From Acidimicrobiales bacterium (GTDB lineage: Bacteria > Actinomycetota > Acidimicrobiia > Acidimicrobiales > Iamiaceae): 24,000 bases of DNA. The notes under the pieces are model-generated. The model was not told the DNA's origin. It ran no database searches and worked only from the letters and a program-made list of their open reading frames with translations. Positions 3,155 to 12,611 of this stretch are shown one piece after another (positions within the stretch are counted from its first letter, which is position 1; each line of letters begins with the position of its first letter). The stretch covers positions 1 through 24,000 of the forward strand of contig JBBRFU010000027.1 of the NCBI GenBank assembly GCA_038241315.1, given 5' to 3'. The position numbers and the translations under genes are program-made.

Positions 3155-3868
3155 TCAGCCGGTGGGCAGGTCGCAGCCGTCGGGGCCGCAGGCGTCCACG
3201 TCGTCGGCCCCGACCACGGTGGTGATCTGCGGTGCCCGCGCCGCCCACGCCTGGCGCAGCACGTCGAGGAGGGTCTCGGCCGGCTGGGCGCCCGAGACGG
3301 CGAGGCGCTGGTCGGCCACGAAGAAGGGCACGCCGCTGATGCCGATCTCCCGGGCGGTGGCCAGGTCCTGGCGGACCTCGGCGGCGAAGGCGTCACCCAC
3401 GAGCACGGCCTCCACCTCCTCGGGGTCCAGGCCGACGTCGACGGCGGCCTTGCGCAGCGTGTCGTGCTCGCCGATGGGCTGGCCGTCGGTGAAGTAGGCG
3501 CGGCCGAGTCGGTGCTTGAGCGCCACCTGGAGGTCCCGCCGGAGGGCGAGGTGCAGGAGGCGGTGGGCGTCGAAGGTGTTCCCGCCGATGGCCTGCTCGA
3601 AGCGGAAGTCGATGCCCCGCTCGGCGCCCAGGGTCACGATGCGGTCCTGGCTCTCCCGGATCGCCTCTACCGTGGTGCCGTACTTCTGGGCCAGTCGCTC
3701 CACCACCGGTTGGTCGTCGCGCCGGGGCGCGCCGGGGTCCAGCTGGAACGCGTGCAGGACCACCTCGACCTCGTCGGCGTGCTCGAACTCGGCCAGGGCG
3801 GCGTCGAGGTTGGCCAACCCCACGTAGCACCAGGGGCACACCACGTCGGACCACACATCGACCTGCAT
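3155..3868 (-). CDS. DsbA-family thiol:disulfide oxidoreductase (FrnE-like)
   Basis: ATG start. The N-terminal VVCPWCY contains a CxxC active site in a thioredoxin-fold context. Length and the GISGVPFFV motif are typical of DsbA/FrnE-like proteins. Confidence 0.9.
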   Translation of the reverse strand: MQVDVWSDVVCPWCYVGLANLDAALAEFEHADEVEVVLHAFQLDPGAPRRDDQPVVERLAQKYGTTVEAIRESQDRIVTLGAERGIDFRFEQAIGGNTFDAHRLLHLALRRDLQVALKHRLGRAYFTDGQPIGEHDTLRKAAVDVGLDPEEVEAVLVGDAFAAEVRQDLATAREIGISGVPFFVADQRLAVSGAQPAETLLDVLRQAWAARAPQITTVVGADDVDACGPDGCDLPTG

Positions 3869-4011: not shown

Positions 4012-4590
4012 ATGCTCCTCGCCACGAGATGCCCCGGCTGCGGCCGCGCCGGGCCGGCCCCCTGCGCGCCGTGCGTGGCCGCCATGGCGCCGGCCGCGCC
4101 GGTGCCCGTCCCGCCGACGTTCGACCGCTGCCGGGCGCTGCTGGCCTACGACGGCGCGGCGCGCGAGGTGGTCGCCCAGCTCAAGTACCGCAACGCCCGG
4201 GCGCCGGCGGCGTGGCTCGGCCGAGGCCTCGCCGGGCTGGTGCGCCCCGGGGAGGTGGAGCTGGTCACGTGGGCCCCCACCACCGACCTTCGCCGCCGGC
4301 GCCGCGGCTTCGACCACGCCGAGCTGCTGGCTCGGCGGCTGGCGGGGGAGCTCGGCCTGCCCTGCCGCTCCCTGCTGGTTCGGGCGCCGGGCCCGCCCCA
4401 GACGGGCCGGACCCTGCTCGAGCGCCGCCGGGGCCCGTCGTTCGTGCCCACCAACCGCCTCGACGGCCGCCGGCTCGCCGTGGTCGACGACGTGATCACC
4501 ACCGGCGCCACCCTCGACGCCGCCGGCCGTGCCCTCCGCGCCGCCGGCGCCGCCCACCTGGTCGGCCTCGCCGCCGCCCACCCCCGCTAG
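4012..4590 (+). CDS. comFC: ComF-family protein (phosphoribosyltransferase-like, ComFC type)
   Basis: ATG preceded by AGGA. There is an N-terminal Cys-rich zinc-finger-like CPGCG...CAPC and a PRTase motif VVDDVITTGAT near the C-terminus. It sits in the conserved position upstream of hpf/secA. Confidence 0.88.
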   Translation: MLLATRCPGCGRAGPAPCAPCVAAMAPAAPVPVPPTFDRCRALLAYDGAAREVVAQLKYRNARAPAAWLGRGLAGLVRPGEVELVTWAPTTDLRRRRRGFDHAELLARRLAGELGLPCRSLLVRAPGPPQTGRTLLERRRGPSFVPTNRLDGRRLAVVDDVITTGATLDAAGRALRAAGAAHLVGLAAAHPR

Positions 4591-4835: not shown

Positions 4836-5213
4836 TCACCGGAGGCGCTCGAGGGCCTGCGCCAGGGACTGCTGGGCAGCGGCCTCATCGACGCCGAGCT
4901 GTCGGGCGATCACGGCCAGCGCGTCGGCGGCCTGATGCAGATCGGTGAGGTCCGGCGTTCTCGCCCCCGTCGCCGGCCGGGCGCGCACGAACGTGCCCGC
5001 TCGACCGCGGCTCTCCACGACCCCGTCTGCCTCGAGCAGCTCGTAGGCCCGCTCGACCGTGCCCTTGGAGAGGCCGAGGTCCGAGGCAAGCTGGCGGATG
5101 GTGGGCAGCCGGGTGCCGGCGCCTGTTTGTCCGCTGACGGCCAGGCGCGCCACCTGGGCGCGGATCTGCTCGTAGACGGGCAGGGGCAGGGCGGGGTCGA
5201 CGCGGAGGAGCAC
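4836..5213 (-). CDS. GntR-family transcriptional regulator, short YtrA-like type (copy 1)
   Basis: Internal GTG at 5213..5211, 2 nt after the TGA of the upstream membrane-protein gene. The winged-HTH signature is PVYEQI...TRLPTIRQLASDLGLSKGTVERAYELLEADGVVESRGRAGTFV. Only ~45 residues follow the DNA-binding domain. A paralog lies at 11138..11542. Confidence 0.85.
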   Translation of the reverse strand: MLLRVDPALPLPVYEQIRAQVARLAVSGQTGAGTRLPTIRQLASDLGLSKGTVERAYELLEADGVVESRGRAGTFVRARPATGARTPDLTDLHQAADALAVIARQLGVDEAAAQQSLAQALERLR

Positions 5214-5215
5214 GG

Positions 5216-6211
5216 TCAGCCCGTTTCCCGGGCGAAGACCACCAGGGCCATCATCGCCAGGCACAGCCCGATCACCCCGAGCGCCCACCAGACCAGGTGC
5301 GAGCGGCGCCCACCGACCGCGTCGAGGTGGAGCGGGGTCAGCCCGAACGAGCGATTCGTCCACCACCAGATGCAGCCCGCGCAGAACAGGGCGATCGAGC
5401 CGAGCCAGGCGACCACCGAGACGACCTGCGTGGCTCGGGGCAGGTCGGGACCGGAAGCCACGACGGCAGACCACTGTGCCGAGATCGCCAGAGCGCCGAG
5501 TGTCACCATCGGCCGTGACGTGCCCGCCGACGTCGCCATGCGCCGCACCTCGTCGTCGGCCGCGGCGAGCGCTGCCGGCACCACCGGCCGAGGGCGCAGT
5601 GCGATGCGGCGGACGGCCCAGTGCCGCACCACCGCCAGCACGACGACGGCGATCCCGAGGGCGATCACGCGCGCGAGGTGCTCGCCCGTCACGGCCGACC
5701 CGACCACGCCCGCCGCCGCCAGGACCAGGAGCACCCGCTCCCGCCGATCGGCGCTCCGGTCGCGATACGCAGCGGGGTCCCGCACCTCGAGCGAAGCCGT
5801 GCGGGGACCCGGGTGCCGCACCCGGAACGCCTCGGCGAGGATCGAGCCGCCGATCGATCCAGCGAGGCCGATCGAGGCGAACAGAAGCAGGTTCAGCTCG
5901 ACCCCGCTCCGGCCGACGGCGTCGGCCGCCACCAGATAGGCCGACATGAGGATGAGGCCGACGATGGCCCCGGAGCGTCGGAATCGTTGCGAACGGTCGA
6001 TGAACCGGCCGACGAGCTGGTCACGCCCCGACGGCGTACCGGGCCCCGGGAACGCTGGGACAGGTCGACTCATGATCACGGCCACCAGCCCGATCCCGAA
6101 CACGGCAGCGACGAAGATGGCGATCAGGCGCACGGCGGATCGATCAGGGTCGACGTCAGCGTGGTGGCTGCGGGAGTGGTGTTGCTTGACTGTCCCATTG
6201 TCATAGGACAA
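5216..6211 (-). CDS. polytopic membrane protein of unknown family (copy 1), co-transcribed with the GntR regulator
   Basis: 331-aa ORF with multiple hydrophobic helices and high GC3. It is paralogous to 11539..12480 (shared TASLxxR...Y and LAADDxVR segments). The start is ambiguous: TTG 6211 lies inside the palindromic region, and the alternative is in-frame GTG 6133. Confidence 0.72.
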   Translation of the reverse strand: MSYDNGTVKQHHSRSHHADVDPDRSAVRLIAIFVAAVFGIGLVAVIMSRPVPAFPGPGTPSGRDQLVGRFIDRSQRFRRSGAIVGLILMSAYLVAADAVGRSGVELNLLLFASIGLAGSIGGSILAEAFRVRHPGPRTASLEVRDPAAYRDRSADRRERVLLVLAAAGVVGSAVTGEHLARVIALGIAVVVLAVVRHWAVRRIALRPRPVVPAALAAADDEVRRMATSAGTSRPMVTLGALAISAQWSAVVASGPDLPRATQVVSVVAWLGSIALFCAGCIWWWTNRSFGLTPLHLDAVGGRRSHLVWWALGVIGLCLAMMALVVFARETG

Positions 6212-6236
6212 TATGACAATGTGCCCTCGATCGCAA
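6186..6236. promoter_or_regulatory. AT-rich palindromic operator candidate overlapping divergent sigma70-like promoters (cassette 1)
   Basis: A perfect 9-bp inverted repeat, CATTGTCAT (6196..6204) / ATGACAATG (6213..6221), is separated by 8 bp. Plus strand: TTGACT (6186..6191), 17 nt, CAATAT (6209..6214), then GTG 6221. Minus strand: TTGCGA (6236..6231), 17 nt, TATTGT (6213..6208). The island stands out in GC-rich DNA. Confidence 0.5.
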
Positions 6237-6823
6237 CCCCCGATCCCTCTGTCGATGGTGCCCTCCTCGACGAGCTGGTGCCCCCGTCGGGGCCGAGATG
6301 GAGGCGGACGATCCTCTGGTTGGCCTTTCTGGGGCTGGTCGGCGCCTTCACCTGGGCGGTCACCACTGGGACCGCGATCCCGCAGGTCGATACCAACGTC
6401 CAGATGTGGGGCGGAGCCGGACCTGTCGGGATCACGTCATCCATCACCAACACCTCACCGGTCGCCATCGAGCTGGTCGGCGGGCCGCACCCGCGTCCCG
6501 GCCTCACCTCGCTCGGCTATACGACCGGCTCACTCACCACCGAGGACATGGTGCCGGTCAAGGCCCCCTCCGACCCGTTCCCGCTGCGCCTCGGCCCCAA
6601 CGAGAGCATCGACCTGACTGCGTGGTACCGCGTCGACGACTGCGACGCCGTGCTCGCCATCGTCCCCGGCGACGATCAGATAGACATTCAGGTCCGCATC
6701 GCCTCGGGCCCGGCGTCGTGGTTCACCGCCGAACGCTCGATCGATGCCCGCCCCCTGACAACGGCCACCGACGAGCCGACGTCCTGGCCTGCGGCCGTCG
6801 CCCGGTTCCCCTGCCCGAGCTGA
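6221..6823 (+). CDS. single-pass membrane protein with beta-rich extracytoplasmic domain, unknown family (copy 1)
   Basis: Last 200 codons of the 5621..6823 ORF, starting from GTG 6221. There is an N-terminal tail, one TM helix (ILWLAFLGLVGAFTWAV), then a beta-rich domain. It is paralogous to 10503..11141: shared L(L/V)DE-x5-GPR-x-R before the TM helix and PF-x20-C in the ectodomain. The upstream part of the ORF is antisense to the membrane-protein gene. Confidence 0.65.
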   Translation: MPSIATPDPSVDGALLDELVPPSGPRWRRTILWLAFLGLVGAFTWAVTTGTAIPQVDTNVQMWGGAGPVGITSSITNTSPVAIELVGGPHPRPGLTSLGYTTGSLTTEDMVPVKAPSDPFPLRLGPNESIDLTAWYRVDDCDAVLAIVPGDDQIDIQVRIASGPASWFTAERSIDARPLTTATDEPTSWPAAVARFPCPS

Positions 6824-6961: not shown

Positions 6962-7426
6962 CTACCAGTCGACCGCTTCCAGGTCTGTCGTCCACTGGAT
7001 GCCGGCCCACTCGCTGACGGCGTCGGTCGACCCCACCATCACCGCCGAGTGACGCTGCGACGCCGTGGGGATCTCGACCCGCCGAAGACCGTCCTCGGAA
7101 CGGCACGAACCGGTGGCCTCCGTGGCCGCGATGCAGACCGTCACCGCCGGCAGGGGTTGTCGGTCGGATGCGGTCTTGATGAAGTCGAGCGTGAGGTCGG
7201 ACGTCTGGCGATCGGTGCTGCCTCCAGCCGACAGGTAGCGCCAGCCCTTTGGCAGGGTCACCGGCGCGAGGGTCGTCGGCGCCTCGCGTCCCCACCCGTC
7301 CTGCACCGCACGCACCTGTGCCTCGAGCACCGCAGACGACGACTCGTCCGCAGGGTCGGAGCTGCACGCCGCGATCAGCACCAGCGCCGACGCCGCGCCT
7401 GCCCATCTCGTCCGCCGGCTCGCCAT
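6962..7426 (-). CDS. putative lipoprotein, function unknown
   Basis: Internal ATG at 7426..7424 with AGGA ~9 nt upstream. The signal MASRRTRWAGAASALVLIAAC carries the classical lipobox LIAAC. 154 aa. The longer 227-aa ORF prefix is P/R-rich and implausible. Confidence 0.7.
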   Translation of the reverse strand: MASRRTRWAGAASALVLIAACSSDPADESSSAVLEAQVRAVQDGWGREAPTTLAPVTLPKGWRYLSAGGSTDRQTSDLTLDFIKTASDRQPLPAVTVCIAATEATGSCRSEDGLRRVEIPTASQRHSAVMVGSTDAVSEWAGIQWTTDLEAVDW

Positions 7427-7536: not shown

Positions 7537-8706
7537 TCAGGGGGCGCCGCCGGTGGGTGGGTCGGTGCGGCCGGGGCGTTGGCGGTTGTGGGTGGGGCAG
7601 AGGAGGCGGCCGTTGTCTTGGCTGGTGGGGCCGCCGTCGGTCCATTCGATGATGTGGTCGACGTGGCAGTGCTCGGCGGGGACGCGGCAGCCGGGGTGGG
7701 TGCAGTGGCGGTCGCGGAGCTCGATGGCTCGGCGAAGGGCGCCGGTGAAGCAGCGTTGCTCGGAGACGTCGATGACCCTCGACGGGGTGTCGAACACGAC
7801 GCGTTCGATGTCGGCCTCGTCGAGGACCGAGGCGACCTGGCCGGGGGTGAGGACGGTGCCGTCGGCGAGCTCGCAGACGCGTCCTTTGAAGGTCTCGTAA
7901 CCGACGAGGACCGAGAGCAGGACCCGGCCCTTGCGGGCGTCGGGGGGCATGGCGGCGGAGCGGCGGGCCATCTCGACCATGGCCGCGGCGCGACGTCGCT
8001 CGGCGCTGCGGGCCAGGTCCGACGCGGTGGCGGCGTCGCCGAGCCGTTCACGAGCCTCGGCCCAGTCGGCTCGGAACAGCTCCTGTTCGAGGCGGAGCAG
8101 CTCGTTGCGGTAGATGGCGCCGCCGACGGTGTCGAGCAGGGCGCGGACGTCGACCCGGTCGCCGAGGGTGGTCACGGCTCTCGCGAAGCACTTCCCGTCC
8201 TTGCGGCGGGCCCGGTCCTCGCTGGCCTGGTCGTCAGCGGCGTTGGTCCACTGCTTGACGATCCGGGCGAAGTCGTCGTGGTGGAGCTGTCGGCCCGACT
8301 CGACGAGGTGCGCCTCGCCCTCGGCGAAGGCGGCCTCGTTCGGGGGCCGGTTCGCCCGGCACAGGGCGTCGACGGCGTCGATCGAGAGCTCCCCGGCCTC
8401 GAACGCCGCTCGGGTGAGGGGCATGGTGCGCAGCCTGCGGGCCCGGCGCACCTCGGCGCCGGCCCGCTCGGGCGCGCACCGTGCCTCGCGGGCCAGGCGC
8501 GCCGCGCCGGAGCGGGAACGGTCCTGGGCCCACACCGTGCGGGCATCCCACACCGACACGAACCGGGCCCGGGCCGCGGCGAGGCGAGCCTCGAGGCGGG
8601 CCATCTCGACCACGACCTCGTGCAGCGAGGCGTCGTCGAGGTCGCCCGGCTCGGTGGCCAGCAGTGCGTCGATCGCCGCCGCGACCTGCATCTCCATGCC
8701 TTCCAT
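7537..8706 (-). CDS. DUF222-domain HNH endonuclease (13E12-repeat-like family)
   Basis: ATG at 8706 (MEGMEMQVAAAIDAL...). The N-terminal DUF222-like helical region is followed by a C-terminal HNH motif, HCTHPGC...HCHVDHIIEW...GPT...N...LCPTHN. Only the last 389 codons of the 818-aa track ORF look coding. Confidence 0.9.
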   Translation of the reverse strand: MEGMEMQVAAAIDALLATEPGDLDDASLHEVVVEMARLEARLAAARARFVSVWDARTVWAQDRSRSGAARLAREARCAPERAGAEVRRARRLRTMPLTRAAFEAGELSIDAVDALCRANRPPNEAAFAEGEAHLVESGRQLHHDDFARIVKQWTNAADDQASEDRARRKDGKCFARAVTTLGDRVDVRALLDTVGGAIYRNELLRLEQELFRADWAEARERLGDAATASDLARSAERRRAAAMVEMARRSAAMPPDARKGRVLLSVLVGYETFKGRVCELADGTVLTPGQVASVLDEADIERVVFDTPSRVIDVSEQRCFTGALRRAIELRDRHCTHPGCRVPAEHCHVDHIIEWTDGGPTSQDNGRLLCPTHNRQRPGRTDPPTGGAP

Positions 8707-8939: not shown

Positions 8940-9126
8940 GCCTGGCGGCCGCGTCGTCGGTCGAGCCGGCCGTCGCCCGGTCGACAGACGGGCCCAGCCG
9001 CGGCACTCGACGGGCCTCCCACCTGCGGCGTGGACGTGCCAGCACACTCCGCGGCGAACCGGACACATGGACCTCCGGGGCGGGTCTACGATCCGAAGGA
9101 CATCCCCCAACAGGAGGTCCCATCCG

Positions 9127-9720
9127 GTGCAGGTCACGGTCAGTCGTCGCCACACGGAGGTCTCCGAGAGTCTGCGGGTCATGGCCGAGGAGAAGATCGG
9201 GCGGCTCGCCCGCTTCGTCGACGGCCTGGACCACGCAGAGGTCCACTTCTCGGAGCACAAGAACCCGCGCATCGCCGACAAGGAGGTGTGCGAGGTCACG
9301 ATCGAGGGCCACGGTCACCACGTGCGGTGCAAGGTCCAGGCCCCCGACGGGTTCCAGGCGGTCGACAAGGCCTACGACAAGCTGGAGCACCAGCTCCACA
9401 AGCTCAAGACGAAGCTGCGCCAGCGCTACCAGGGGGCGCCGAAGGCCAAGAAGGGCGTCGACAGCCTCGGCGCCGTGGTGGCCCCGCCCGAGGTGACGCC
9501 CGAGGTGGCGGTCGACGACGAGTCGCTCGACGCCGGCGGGCCCCAGATCGTGAAGTCGAAGCGCTTCGCCATGTTCCCGATGAGCGCCGAGGAGGCGGTG
9601 GAGCGCATGGAGCTCATCGGCCACGGCTTCTTCTTCTTCACCCACATCGAGACCTCTCGTGCCGCGGTCGTGTACCGCCGCGACGACGGCCAGGTCGGCC
9701 TCATCGACGAAGCCGACTGA
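9127..9720 (+). CDS. hpf: ribosome hibernation promoting factor, long form
   Basis: GTG 9127 lies 9 nt after a perfect AGGAGG (9112..9117). The N-terminal S30AE/RaiA domain begins VQVTVSRRHTEVSESLR. The C-terminal dimerisation domain is KSKRFAMFPMSAEEAVERMELIGHGFFFF...VVYRRDDGQVGLI. Confidence 0.92.
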   Translation: MQVTVSRRHTEVSESLRVMAEEKIGRLARFVDGLDHAEVHFSEHKNPRIADKEVCEVTIEGHGHHVRCKVQAPDGFQAVDKAYDKLEHQLHKLKTKLRQRYQGAPKAKKGVDSLGAVVAPPEVTPEVAVDDESLDAGGPQIVKSKRFAMFPMSAEEAVERMELIGHGFFFFTHIETSRAAVVYRRDDGQVGLIDEAD

Positions 9721-9727
9721 CGCGTCG

Positions 9728-10423
9728 TTGCCTCCCCCCAGCGACGTCCCCCCGAGGGGCGCCGTCCTCCGGGTGCTCGTCTGCGACGACCACGTGGTGT
9801 TCCGGCGTGGGCTCGGCCTCGTGCTCGAGGCCGAGCCGGACGTGGAGGTGGTGGGGGAGGCGGCCGACACCGCGGCCGCGATCGCGGCGGCAGCGTCGCT
9901 CCGTCCCGACGTGGTGCTGATGGACCTCCGGATGCCCGGCGGCGGCGGCCTCGAGGCCACCCGCCGCATCTGCGCCGACCGGCCGGAGACCAAGGTCGTC
10001 GTGTTGACGGTGAGCGACGACGACGAGGACCTCTTCGAGGCGGTGAAAGCCGGTGCGGTCGGCTACCTCCTCAAGGAGGTGTCGATCGAGGGCGTCGGCG
10101 ACGCGGTCCGCACCGTGGCCGCCGGCGAGAGCCTGCTGTCGCCGGCCATGACCGCCAAGCTCCTCGGGGGCTACGCCGCGCTGGCCAACCAGGCGGGCGG
10201 TCGGCGCGCCGGCGGCGCGATCGGCGCCCTCACCGAGCGCGAGCACCAGACGCTGCTCGGCCTGGCTCGCGGCCTCTCGAACCGGGCCATCGCCGCCGAG
10301 CTCGGCATCGCCGAGAACACCGTGAAGAACCACGTCCGCGGCGTGCTCGAGAAGCTCAAGGTCTCCAGCCGCACCGAGGCCGCCCTCTACGCCGTGCGCG
10401 AGGGCCTCACCGGCGAGGGCTGA
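9728..10423 (+). CDS. NarL/LuxR-family response regulator (no cognate kinase in window)
   Basis: The receiver domain has CDDH, the phospho-acceptor context VVLMDLRMPG, LTVS and GYLLK. The C-terminal LuxR HTH is LTEREHQTLLGLARGLSNRAIAAELGIAENTVKNHV. TTG 9728 was chosen so that beta-1 (LRVLVCDD) is included. GTG 9773 and GTG 9659 are alternatives. Confidence 0.88.
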   Translation: MPPPSDVPPRGAVLRVLVCDDHVVFRRGLGLVLEAEPDVEVVGEAADTAAAIAAAASLRPDVVLMDLRMPGGGGLEATRRICADRPETKVVVLTVSDDDEDLFEAVKAGAVGYLLKEVSIEGVGDAVRTVAAGESLLSPAMTAKLLGGYAALANQAGGRRAGGAIGALTEREHQTLLGLARGLSNRAIAAELGIAENTVKNHVRGVLEKLKVSSRTEAALYAVREGLTGEG

Positions 10424-10502: not shown

Positions 10503-11141
10503 TCAGCAGTCGCTCTGGTCCAGGGCGAGATCGAGGGTCCGGGAGCGCCCGAGCGGGCCCTCGATCTCCAGGTGCAGCGTGCCGGGTGGGCTCGTGCAGG
10601 GGGTTCGGTGGAACACCAGCACCCGCTGGGACGCCTGGGGGTCGATGTCGACCGGGCGGAACGGGCGCAGCCCCGGCCCCGGCGCCCCGACGTCGTCGGC
10701 CCCGGCCGGGGCCCCGAGCGACCACAGGGGGCCCGACTCGGCGGTGGAGACGGCCAGGAAGAACCCCACGACCGGCTCCGCTCCGTCGTCGGGGGCGCCA
10801 GCGGTGAACGAGGCGTCGGTGAGCTCGAAGGTCGTCATCCCCTTGTTGTGGAGCTCGACCTCCAGGAAGGATCGGATGACCGTGGTCTCGCCGGTCTCGC
10901 CGGTCTCGCCGGTCTCGCCGGTGTCGCCGGTCTCGCCGGTCTCGCCGGGGAGCGAGCCCGAGCCGCCCACGCCCGAGGTGACCTCGACCCAGGGGTTGAC
11001 GGCGCCGGACACGCGGAGTGCGGTCAGGACGACGAGCACCGCCACGATGACCCCGACGAAGCGGGCGACCGGGTGCCGCGAGCGGGGGCCGAGCCGAGCC
11101 AGGGGCTCGTCGACGAGGGTGTCGCTGGGGGATGGGCTCAC
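10503..11141 (-). CDS. single-pass membrane protein with (GET)n linker and beta-rich ectodomain, unknown family (copy 2)
   Basis: GTG 11141 overlaps the TGA of the upstream GntR gene (GTGA). TM helix FVGVIVAVLVVLTAL, then a G-X-T repeat linker, then a beta-rich Cys-containing domain. Paralog of 6221..6823. Confidence 0.75.
   Translation of the reverse strand: MSPSPSDTLVDEPLARLGPRSRHPVARFVGVIVAVLVVLTALRVSGAVNPWVEVTSGVGGSGSLPGETGETGDTGETGETGETGETTVIRSFLEVELHNKGMTTFELTDASFTAGAPDDGAEPVVGFFLAVSTAESGPLWSLGAPAGADDVGAPGPGLRPFRPVDIDPQASQRVLVFHRTPCTSPPGTLHLEIEGPLGRSRTLDLALDQSDC
10884..10946. repeat. 9-bp tandem repeat GGTCTCGCC x7 (one GGTGTCGCC variant), in-frame, encoding GETGETGDTGETGETGETGET
   Basis: Seven contiguous copies read directly at 10884, 10893, 10902, 10911, 10920 (variant), 10929 and 10938. 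Confidence 0.95.
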
Positions 11142-11542
11142 GAGGACCTCCGGGTGCGGTCGATGTCGGGGTCGAGGGCGGCGAAGGCGGCGCGCACGGC
11201 GGCGACGGCGTCGTCGACCGTGAGGCCGCGGTGGGCGGCCTCCACCGCGAACGCGCTCGCCGTCGAACCGAGGTCGGCCGCGGCGGTCGCCCGGTCGGGC
11301 TCGTGACCCTCGGCCACGAACGTGCCGTGGCGGCCGCGGCTGGTCACCAGGCCCTCGAGCTCGAGCTCCCGGTAGGCCCGGGCCACGGTGTTGACCGCGA
11401 TGCCGAGGTCGTTGGCGAGGTGGCGGATGGTGGGCAGACGGGTGCCGGTGGCCAGCACCCCGCTGCGGACCATGGTGGCGAGCTGCTGTTGGATCTGGGC
11501 GTACGGCGGCGTGGCCGAGTGGGGGTCGACCCGGATGATCAC
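11138..11542 (-). CDS. GntR-family transcriptional regulator, short YtrA-like type (copy 2)
   Basis: GTG 11542 overlaps the TGA of the upstream membrane-protein gene (GTGA). The HTH is PPYAQI...TRLPTIRHLANDLGIAVNTVARAYRELELEGLVTSRGRHGTFV, followed by a short C-terminal tail. 134 aa. Confidence 0.85.
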   Translation of the reverse strand: MIIRVDPHSATPPYAQIQQQLATMVRSGVLATGTRLPTIRHLANDLGIAVNTVARAYRELELEGLVTSRGRHGTFVAEGHEPDRATAAADLGSTASAFAVEAAHRGLTVDDAVAAVRAAFAALDPDIDRTRRSS

Positions 11543-12456
11543 GTCGGCACCGGGTCGGGTGGCCGGTCGGCGAGATCGGACCGGCGCACCCGCCAGGCCC
11601 GGTAGGCGAAGGAGCGCCAGGAGAACAGGGCCAGGACCAGGAACGTGATCGGGAGGACCGAGAAGGCGCCGGGCACGTCGATCCAGGGCACCTCGATCAC
11701 CGCGGCGTGGTTGGCGAGGCCGAGGGTGCAGATCATGGCGGTCCCGGCCCCGGCCACCTGGTGGATGGCGCTCGTCCGTACGGCGTCGTCGGCGGCGAGC
11801 AGATCCGGTTCCAGCACCGCCTGGCGGCGACCGACGATGCGCTGCTCGGCCAGGGCGACGGCTGCGGCCACCAGCGCAGCGGCCAGCACGCGGCCACCGA
11901 GCGACGTCCACGACGGGAGGGGGAAGGTGTCCGGCGCCTCCGCGTGGGTGAGGGCCCGCATCGCGATCGTCGACCCCGCCATCAGCCCGAGCGCGCCGGC
12001 CGGCGCCCACCGGAGCCCGACCGGCAGGTAGTCGGCGAGGCGTCGGGGCGTGAGCGAGGCCGTCGCCGGCGCCGCAGGGGAGGGGGCCACCTGGTGCTGG
12101 GCCCAGAGCGCCCCGACCGCCCAGCCGCCGATCACCCAGGTCCACCACCCGGCGCCCGACGAGGTGTCGACGCCGAAGGCGCGGTCGACGACGTAGCCCA
12201 GGTACATGGCGCCGACGGCTCCGATGCCCCGACAGGTGATGGCGAGCGACACGTAGTAGCGGACGAGCGGGCGGGTCCGGGCCGTCAACCGCACGCCGTG
12301 CGACCGGGCCCAGGAGGTCACCTCGGCCGGCCGGTCGGCCCGGCGGGTGAGGAACGACACGAGCGCGAACGTCAGCAGCGCCCCCCACACCCCGATGCCG
12401 AGGAGCGCCCCGATCGGGTACCCCGCCACCTCACTGCTCGTCCCGATCGCCAGCAC
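11539..12456 (-). CDS. polytopic membrane protein of unknown family (copy 2)
   Basis: Multiple TM helices and high GC3. Paralog of 5216..6211. GTG 12456 is preferred because GGAGG (12469..12465) lies 8 nt upstream. ATG 12480 and the track start at 12522 are alternatives lying inside or beyond the palindrome. Confidence 0.72.
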   Translation of the reverse strand: MLAIGTSSEVAGYPIGALLGIGVWGALLTFALVSFLTRRADRPAEVTSWARSHGVRLTARTRPLVRYYVSLAITCRGIGAVGAMYLGYVVDRAFGVDTSSGAGWWTWVIGGWAVGALWAQHQVAPSPAAPATASLTPRRLADYLPVGLRWAPAGALGLMAGSTIAMRALTHAEAPDTFPLPSWTSLGGRVLAAALVAAAVALAEQRIVGRRQAVLEPDLLAADDAVRTSAIHQVAGAGTAMICTLGLANHAAVIEVPWIDVPGAFSVLPITFLVLALFSWRSFAYRAWRVRRSDLADRPPDPVPT

Positions 12457-12475: not shown

Positions 12476-12505
12476 CTCATTGTGTCAATGCATTGATACA
12501 ATGAG
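12476..12505. promoter_or_regulatory. 30-bp near-perfect AT-rich palindrome (candidate GntR operator) containing divergent extended -10 elements (cassette 2 / secA upstream)
   Basis: CTCATTGTGTCAATG | CATTGATACAATGAG, with 14 of 15 arm positions complementary. Internally it reads as two CATTG-N3-CAATG units. TGATACAAT (12494..12502) faces secA on the plus strand. TGACACAAT (12487..12479) faces the membrane-protein operon on the minus strand. Confidence 0.55.
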
Positions 12506-12611
12506 ACAACGACACGCGTCAAGGGCCGAGCGTGGTGCTCGGGCGATCGTCCTGGCGCCCCGTCCGGGCCGACGACCGTTGGGGGGCGGGGGACCTACAC
12601 TCGCGAACCTC

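Follow-up and report, generated by a model that had tools for sequence, protein, structure and literature searches.

Two cassettes and their predicted operators

The subject of this analysis was a stretch of 24,000 nucleotides (nt) from an uncultured Acidimicrobiales bacterium (Iamiaceae; contig JBBRFU010000027.1, positions 1 to 24,000), which is called the window throughout. It contains two copies, spaced 4 kb apart, of a three-gene cassette encoding a small regulator of the GntR family (GntR), a polytopic membrane protein (Mem) and a single-pass membrane protein (SP). In cassette 1, Mem1 (5216–6133, minus strand, 305 amino acids (aa), GTG start at 6133) is followed by GntR1 (4836–5213, minus strand, 125 aa), whose GTG start lies 2 nt after the Mem1 stop (5216), and SP1 (6221–6823, plus strand, 200 aa) is divergent from this Mem1-GntR1 unit. 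Cassette 2 is a single minus-strand operon of Mem2 (11539–12456, 305 aa), GntR2 (11138–11542, 134 aa) and SP2 (10503–11141, 212 aa), in which GntR2 overlaps both Mem2 upstream and SP2 downstream by GTGA start/stop junctions. The GTG start of Mem2 (12456) is preceded by GGAGG at a distance of 8 nt.

An earlier reading, made from the letters of the window without database searches (the sequence-only reading), had given the same positions for GntR1 and SP1 and the same 2-nt gap, all of which were borne out. It had also extended Mem1 over 5216..6211 (∼330 aa). The stop and the maximal open reading frame (ORF; 331 aa, reaching 6211) were correct, but the start was moved to GTG 6133, because the 100%-identical NCBI protein has 305 aa and the 36 homologues obtained from a word index are mostly of 300–308 aa. 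The TTG at 6211 was rejected as a start, as it is inside the predicted operator and the homologues begin 26 codons later. For Mem2, 11 homologues were obtained from the word index, and its NCBI protein likewise has 305 aa.

GntR1 and GntR2 shared 49% identity by BLASTP (E value of 7e-28). The BLASTP match of Mem1 and Mem2 was marginal (E 0.013), and the pairwise comparison of SP1 and SP2 gave no significance (E 0.23). Family alignments were then compared by hhalign. Those of Mem (27 Mem1-type and 10 Mem2-type homologues) matched over 165 columns with a probability of 97.8% (E 1.2e-12), and those of SP (15 SP1-family and 7 SP2-family sequences) over 112 columns with a probability of 96.3% (E 1.8e-9). 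On the strength of these scored alignments, the paralogy that had been claimed by eye is significant for all three genes, and the three gene pairs are homologous. The motifs on which the claim had rested were found in aligned, conserved columns: TRLPTIR(Q/H)LA(S/N)DLG and SRGR(A/H)GTFV in the regulators, where the estimate of about half identical positions compares with the 49% obtained here; TASL..R...(A/D)Y and LAADD(E/A)VR in the Mem proteins, in register in the hhalign alignment; and L(L/V)DE-x5-GPR-x-R and PF-x20-C in the SP proteins, also by hhalign.

Pfam and NCBIfam assigned families to the two regulators alone among the cassette proteins. Both matched the GntR family (PF00392; gathering cutoff of 27 bits) over profile positions 1–64, with 53.8 bits for GntR1 and 61.6 bits for GntR2. 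The best NCBIfam model for both was the Rv1152 family (NF053730), with full-length alignments of 85.3 and 108.8 bits; these scores are below its curated equivalog cutoff of 170 bits, and neither regulator was assigned to it. PmtR was also among the NCBIfam matches. In the PDB, the matches included the short YtrA-type regulators 6sbs, 4ham, 3neu, 3by6 and 4r1h; of the short regulators, 6sbs, 4ham, 3tqn and 3neu were closest to GntR1, with 6sbs as its second-best match (E 6e-9). The alignment of 17 cassette GntRs showed a conserved winged helix-turn-helix (wHTH; residues 1–76), a variable linker and two conserved amphipathic C-terminal segments. Members of the YtrA subfamily are about 120–130 aa long, with a C-terminal domain cut down to two helices (about 50 aa). 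With 125 and 134 aa, a predicted wHTH and a short C-terminal tail, GntR1 and GntR2 appear to share this layout.

Mem1 is polytopic with about 8 (7–8) predicted transmembrane helices. From hydrophobicity and Lys/Arg counts, its inside loops were placed at residues 22–54, 101–133, 175–207 and 256–282, containing 7, 9, 6 and 3 Lys/Arg, respectively, and the loops on the opposite membrane side are only 3–12 residues long. The AlphaFold2 model, built from a 36-sequence alignment, was all-helical (mean pLDDT of 80, pTM of 0.75, core pLDDT >90) and showed a helical bundle with long helices reaching into the cytoplasm. Residues invariant throughout the superfamily were G92, G96, E101, R106, A113-L115-R118, Y123, P183 and D193-D194-R197, and R52 was also listed among the invariant residues in cytoplasmic loops; nearly all of them are predicted to be in or beside the Arg-rich loops on the cytoplasmic side. 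A conserved GxxxG and a Glu were found at the end of transmembrane helix 3.

By exhaustive profile search, the Mem superfamily was found to comprise 1,286 or more clusters at 50% identity (E ≤1e-3), 823 of whose representatives reached E ≤1e-10. Mem1 and Mem2 matched no Pfam family, and NCBIfam returned only two chance-level matches of Mem1 (E 0.017 and 0.35), far below the cutoffs. Nothing consistent was obtained when 50 diverse superfamily members were scanned against Pfam and NCBIfam, and the Mem profile gave one spurious match only (E 0.013) against PDB sequences. By Foldseek, the Mem1 model had no fold match in the PDB (best E 0.08, TM-score ≤0.33) or in BFVD. A PADLOC search of Mem1, Mem2, SP1 and SP2 yielded no match at E up to 0.1, and a PHROG search no relevant match for Mem or SP. 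The earlier statement that neither Mem nor SP could be placed in a named family held in all of these searches. Mem is a large protein family that no database model describes, and it deserves a family model.

SP1 has a cytoplasmic N-tail, which carries the conserved motif LDELVPPxGPRWRR; a single transmembrane helix follows, and then an acidic ectodomain, a beta-sandwich in which two Cys are conserved. The predicted topology is N-in/C-out. An identical 200-aa NCBI protein and 12 homologues were found. The AlphaFold2 model (pLDDT of 70) showed a disordered N-tail, a helix at 26–50 and beta strands at 56–172, and Foldseek against the PDB retrieved only generic immunoglobulin (Ig)-like domains (ASH, MSP, GAE, PCuAC; TM-score ≤0.49). 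The acidic ectodomain with its two conserved Cys is consistent with an extracytoplasmic, disulfide-bonded domain. The Pfam scan of SP and Mem gave no MmpS or MmpL match. Together, the predicted topologies and the AlphaFold models of Mem1 and SP1 agree with the envelope association suggested by the sequence-only reading.

SP2, the paralogue of SP1, carries a (Gly-Glu-Thr)x7 insert after its transmembrane helix and ahead of the beta-sandwich, where it would form a short stalk resembling collagen. It is encoded by a tandem repeat at 10884–10948 (9-nt unit, 7.2 copies, 96% matches). As none of the six aligned SP2-type orthologues has the insert, it appears to be lineage-specific, and it is possibly length-variable. 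PHROG matches of SP2 to tail fibres were discarded, being due only to the Gly-X-Y repeat.

Each cassette has a palindromic predicted operator over its promoter. The copy-1 operator and divergent promoter block (6186–6221; TTGACTGTCCCATTGTCATAGGACAATATGACAATG) is situated between the divergent SP1 and Mem1-GntR1 units. Read towards Mem1, it shows four TGTC/GACA boxes with 8 bp spacing, and it includes a perfect 10-nt inverted repeat (6196–6205/6212–6221) and a second one overlapping it. The copy-2 block (12476–12522), ahead of the Mem2-GntR2-SP2 operon, contains the palindrome TTGTCTCATTGTATCAATGCATTGACACAATG (12509–12478 in minus-strand reading), with 15-nt arms that are 93% complementary. Both palindromes are AT-rich, with TTGTC/GACAA boxes, within DNA of about 73% GC. 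With two mismatches allowed, CATTGT-N14-ACAATG occurred at exactly 2 sites in the 24 kb, both at the cassette promoters, compared with 0.06 expected.

A TTGTC/GACAA palindrome is what would be expected as the operator of a YtrA-type mini-GntR. The form of the cassette operators agrees with the YtrA motifs in the literature, which are extended palindromes whose GT/AC positions are distant from the centre (PMC4494728). The palindromes at 6196–6221 and 12478–12509, which are conserved in relatives, would be in keeping with the operator style of the YtrA subfamily. Both regulators are best described as GntR family members that fit this subfamily by their length, the layout of their domains and the style of their operators. 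The typical YtrA partner, a co-encoded ABC transporter, was absent from both cassettes and all related-locus cassettes examined, and the gene table of the window has no ABC transporter gene in or beside either cassette. Without an ABC partner, the cassettes match an atypical 'membrane protein' YtrA subgroup that is mentioned in PMC6746942.

Promoter hexamers were assigned by eye. In copy 1, a −35-like TTGACT (6186–6191) is followed after a 17-nt spacer by a −10-like CAATAT (6209–6214), and the SP1 GTG follows the latter at a distance of 6 nt. In copy 2, TTGACG (12522–12517), an 18-nt spacer and TATCAA (12498–12493) were found on the minus strand, overlapping the palindrome. A −35-like TTGAC(T/G/C/A) was seen 17–18 nt ahead of each operator, with a weak −10 inside it. 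This assignment is tentative, since a consensus scan called neither promoter. The SP1 transcript would be leaderless under it, because the GTG is only 6 nt past the −10-like element.

Related loci, gene orders and fusions

Related loci were gathered by genome scan, metagenome scan and exact-protein look-ups, and the six window proteins were located in them by tblastn and ORF reading. The closest named relatives were Aquihabitans and Iamiaceae metagenome-assembled genomes (MAGs). The titles of the related loci and proteins included Aquihabitans, Iamiaceae and Acidimicrobiales, as well as one MAG titled 'Actinomycetes bacterium', and in cluster look-ups for 20 superfamily members 'Acidimicrobiales bacterium' was the single organism name obtained. 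The GntR gene adjoined the Mem gene in 25 of 25 loci, and an SP-like gene was present in all 21 loci with enough sequence to judge. Both ends of the GntR-Mem junction were known, from the gene table or the sequence, in 14 loci. The gap was ≤2 nt or the genes overlapped by 4 nt in 12 of them; in the remaining two (L001 and L002), the tblastn matches of GntR and Mem were further apart. No flanking genes were common to the window and the related loci, and the flanks, mostly housekeeping genes, differed each time. The triad proposed by the sequence-only reading is found together in every related locus with enough sequence, in differing surroundings.

Three gene orders were observed. In type 1, SP is divergent from Mem-GntR (window, L001, L002, L005, L006, L019, L020, L021, L023 and L025, with L003 and L004 partial). 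Type 2 is a Mem-GntR-SP operon (window, L009, L011, L012, L013, L015 and L016), with SP2 orthologues downstream of GntR2-like genes in the six related loci; the view was incomplete for L010 and L014, which are cut within GntR, and for the P0156 locus, taken from gene data without DNA. In type 3, GntR comes first, as GntR-Mem-SP in L026, and as GntR followed by a single Mem-SP fusion in L024 and the P0188 locus.

GntR1 was 65–83% identical to its type-1 orthologues and 44–49% identical to type-2 proteins. A recent local (tandem) duplication was rejected, as GntR1 is closer to these orthologues in other genomes than to GntR2, with which it shares only 49%. For the same reason the two copies are viewed as distinct, ancient paralogous subtypes, each with orthologues in unrelated genomic contexts. 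Of the earlier description of the module as duplicated and rearranged, the duplication stands; a local or recent event does not.

The predicted operator was conserved along with the subtypes. The type-1 block was nearly invariant in 10 type-1 loci, where the surrounding intergenic DNA had diverged and the proteins were only 24–77% identical (the L025 Mem being about 24% identical to Mem1). The type-2 form of the operator precedes the type-2 and type-3 cassettes of L010, L011, L016, L024 and L026. This conservation of a palindrome over each cassette promoter is in line with the self-regulation that the sequence-only reading had supposed.

P0188 and P0202 are natural Mem-SP fusions. In P0188, which has 666 aa, the C-terminal half matched the SP2 profile with a probability of 95.9% (E 5e-9). 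The predicted topologies suit such a fusion, in that the type-2/3 Mem would end in the cytoplasm, where SP would begin. Because P0188 is a natural fusion, it argues that Mem and SP may act as one complex. In the type-3 loci (L026 3950–4870; L024 5658–5984; P0188 residues about 560–666), the SP or fusion proteins also have an extra C-terminal Mtb12_C domain (PF26580), which by Pfam is absent from SP1 and SP2. This domain is named after a secreted mycobacterial antigen. Both fusion loci are beside a DUF3107 gene (L024 3113–3346; P0188 locus), which suggests that the fusion subtype has a fixed chromosomal position in its own lineage, unlike types 1 and 2. ArsA/ParA-like ATPase genes were found beside the P0188 locus, and L024 has only a small ParA-family ORF downstream.

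Some loci had a degraded appearance. Only Mem residues 171–268 are kept in L004 (3394–4495), the GntR of L005 (6873–7202) becomes divergent past the wHTH and is absent from the gene calls, and Mem and SP of L023 (3910–5900) are broken by frameshifts. These features may reflect sequencing errors or genuine decay. L023 was also the source of P0033, an apparent GntR-Mem fusion, which was rejected because its Mem frame is split into several frames on the contig.

A possible mechanism, its rivals and known systems

Each copy may be a self-contained, autorepressed envelope cassette, with Mem and SP as the effector and release of the repressor through them; we give this reading a probability of roughly 0.45, that is, somewhat short of even odds. 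By analogy with YtrA of Sulfolobus acidocaldarius (PMC6746942), the promoter would be occluded: a GntR dimer, or a pair of dimers, would bind the palindrome and block RNA polymerase, and the cassette would be off. Mem and SP would form one membrane complex, the working part, presumably in envelope protection or homeostasis. An envelope role is supported by the induction of the Bacillus subtilis ytr operon by lipid II cycle inhibitors (PMC12772383). Release would most likely occur through the Mem-SP complex, because the repressor is without an effector domain. If the ectodomain or the membrane were disturbed, GntR might be captured or inactivated by the conserved cytoplasmic face of Mem, following the logic of the B. 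subtilis SdpR-SdpI pair. There, the gene of a small winged-helix autorepressor shares a transcript with that of SdpI, a polytopic membrane protein which is at once the protective effector and the signal transducer, sequestering SdpR at the membrane. The idea of a relay draws on three features, the GntR without a ligand domain, the predicted cytoplasmic position of the conserved Mem residues and the adjacency of GntR and Mem in all three gene orders, and the relay from Mem to GntR is probably the weakest step. Since the operator variants differ, the two copies would probably be separate channels.

A more specific form of this mechanism, which we regard as unlikely, would be an undescribed three-component envelope-to-DNA route, in which the Ig-like SP is the sensor and Mem, with its Arg-rich cytoplasmic mini-domain, is a membrane-bound anti-repressor of the mini-GntR. 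YtrA-type GntRs, which have almost no effector domain, are associated with stress from antibiotics and at the cell envelope in Bacillus and in other bacteria. If the anti-repressor route were true, it could be a general signal input for such pocket-less regulators, at least in Acidimicrobiia and related Actinomycetota, because the superfamily comprises at least 1,286 clusters.

Several points weigh against release through Mem-SP. The evidence for it is in silico throughout, and contact of GntR with Mem is inferred, the only apparent fusion of the two (P0033) having come from a frameshifted contig. No promoter above threshold was called by the consensus scan in either intergenic region. The operator scan covered 24 kb of the genome, and further GntR targets are possible elsewhere. 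Most YtrA operons encode effectors (ABC transporters), and their regulators are not known to be sequestered. Finally, the fold of Mem matched nothing in the PDB or BFVD by Foldseek, and no activity could be read from its structure.

The main rival, ranked below the relay and considered doubtful, is a plain repressor-plus-effector operon, in which Mem with an accessory SP would be a small exporter, permease or immunity protein and GntR would sense directly, binding for example a membrane-active peptide or lipid, with no signalling through Mem. Staphylococcus aureus PmtR, which reportedly binds phenol-soluble modulins, would be an example of direct sensing, and the NCBIfam PmtR model is among the matches of the cassette GntRs. 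The tail of a mini-GntR, however, is considered too small to accommodate most ligands (PMC4494728, PMC6746942). The plain operon is also favoured by the finding that a YtrA regulon mostly amounts to one transporter operon (PMC4494728). The GxxxG and Glu at the end of Mem transmembrane helix 3 and the spurious nature of P0033, the one GntR-Mem fusion, are on the same side, but the invariant Mem residues cluster on cytoplasmic loops and not in the helix core. A precedent is given by MmpS-MmpL, where a single-pass beta-sandwich protein is the partner of a polytopic transporter; Mem itself, however, has no fold or sequence likeness to any transporter.

A dedicated three-component signalling system, with SP as sensor, Mem as transducer and GntR as output, would make the cassette a regulatory device and not an effector, with its main targets elsewhere in the genome. 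The lack of an effector domain in GntR, the conservation of both the SP ectodomain and the cytoplasmic tail motif, and the distinct operator variants of the paralogous cassettes, as in paralogous signalling systems, would fit; yet the only two operators in the 24 kb scanned are those of the cassettes themselves, and the S. acidocaldarius YtrA regulon is limited to membrane protein genes (PMC6746942). This possibility is considered quite unlikely. It is very improbable that the cassettes are carried by a mobile element or belong to an anti-phage defence island; this would explain the varying contexts, without flanking genes common to the window and any related locus, as well as the DUF222-HNH gene between the copies (7537–8697) and the phage-like neighbours of L019, including HTH and Peptidase_M78 genes. 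The flanks are otherwise mostly housekeeping genes, and no integrase, tRNA or repeat boundary was seen in the window. Mem and SP had no PADLOC or relevant PHROG match, Mem1 had no fold match in BFVD, and tblastn of one Mem superfamily member against 72,556 PLSDB plasmids found no match.

Tsypik et al. (2016) are said to have described an actinomycete YtrA-like subgroup, e.g. Streptomyces coelicolor SCO3812, with membrane protein genes instead of ABC transporters. According to PMC6746942, YtrA-type GntR genes paired with membrane protein genes are recognised in actinomycetes and Sulfolobus, and their function is 'unclear'. Since this kind of pairing was already recognised, although uncharacterised, it is less new than the sequence-only reading had suggested. 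Among described kinds, the SCO3812 group and the Sulfolobus ytrA operon come nearest to the cassettes, as judged by their descriptions. Like the SCO3812 group (PMC6746942), the cassettes have a mini-GntR of 120–135 aa in one operon with a membrane protein in Actinomycetota. The published summary is silent on several features found here, namely the obligatory SP, the fusions of Mem with SP, the three different gene orders and the operator, the comparison being one of descriptions.

S. acidocaldarius YtrA (Saci_1850, Saci_2078; 6sbs) is an autorepressor of a membrane-protein operon, as proposed for the cassette GntRs. Its very small regulon, which it represses, consists of its own operon and one further gene for a membrane protein, and its operator, with which the operator form seen here agrees, has a semi-palindromic core flanked by direct-repeat half-sites and covers the transcription start (PMC6746942). 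The system differs in being archaeal, in its regulator-first order and in its 14-bp core, compared with a 26–34-bp array here; no single-pass Ig-like partner is reported there, and the membrane proteins are set side by side by description. The ytrGABCDEF operon of B. subtilis has a YtrA-type autorepressor without an obvious ligand domain and responds to envelope and lipid II cycle stress (PMC12772383). Its effector is an ABC transporter (with a small membrane protein, YtrG), in contrast to the cassettes, which have no ABC genes.

SdpR-SdpI similarly combines a small winged-helix repressor with a polytopic protein, and sequestration is proposed here by functional analogy only. SdpR is of the ArsR family and SdpI of another membrane family, with no sequence or Pfam relationship to the cassette proteins; with a GntR regulator and a Mem without Pfam match, the cassettes are not an SdpI/SdpR-type pair. 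Mycobacterial MmpR5(Rv0678)-MmpS5-MmpL5 shares the set of a small repressor, a single-pass protein with a beta-sandwich ectodomain and a polytopic partner, but MmpL is a 12-helix resistance-nodulation-division (RND) transporter of about 950 aa, the repressor is MarR-type, and no Pfam MmpS/MmpL match exists here. Novel features seem to be the obligatory Ig-like SP, the Mem-SP fusions, the three permuted orders, the 8-bp-phased operator that the subtypes share and how large the unannotated superfamily is.

The window is a clean, twice-repeated example of a defined predicted operator with an obligatory, sometimes fused membrane pair from a large unannotated superfamily. If the membrane pair controls the repressor, it would represent a new signalling arrangement; if it does not, it would still have a widespread function in the envelope of an actinobacterial class that has received little study.

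Surroundings of the cassettes

The window is very GC-rich (65–77%), and Rfam and tRNA scans of its whole length gave no match. Cassette 1 is preceded by a DsbA-like gene (3155–3868, minus strand) upstream and a ComF-like phosphoribosyltransferase gene (4012–4590, plus strand), and is followed by a small lipoprotein gene (6962–7426, minus strand, 154 aa). The lipoprotein gene is convergent with SP1; its product has a predicted signal peptide ending in LIAAC and no Pfam match, and the gene was not found adjoining any related cassette. A DUF222-HNH endonuclease gene (PF02720, PF01844; 7537–8697, minus strand) and the Hpf gene (9067–9720, plus strand) are between the cassettes. Genes of the DUF222 and HNH endonuclease type are often regarded as mobile; the present one has an over-long ORF (to 9993) that overlaps hpf on the opposite strand. 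A NarL/LuxR-type response regulator gene (9761–10423, plus strand) precedes cassette 2, and the SecA gene, on the plus strand from about 12612, with the backbone stretch continuing to 15329, is beyond it. Since comF, hpf and secA are neighbours in many Actinomycetota, a conserved comF-hpf-secA stretch seems to have received both cassettes, the lipoprotein gene and the HNH gene as insertions.

In the interval that separates the cassette-2 operator from the start of secA, an imperfect GC-rich palindrome (12523–12570) was observed, with 27-nt overlapping arms that are 70% complementary. As only about 100 nt lie between this operator and secA, the gene might conceivably be regulated divergently from it.

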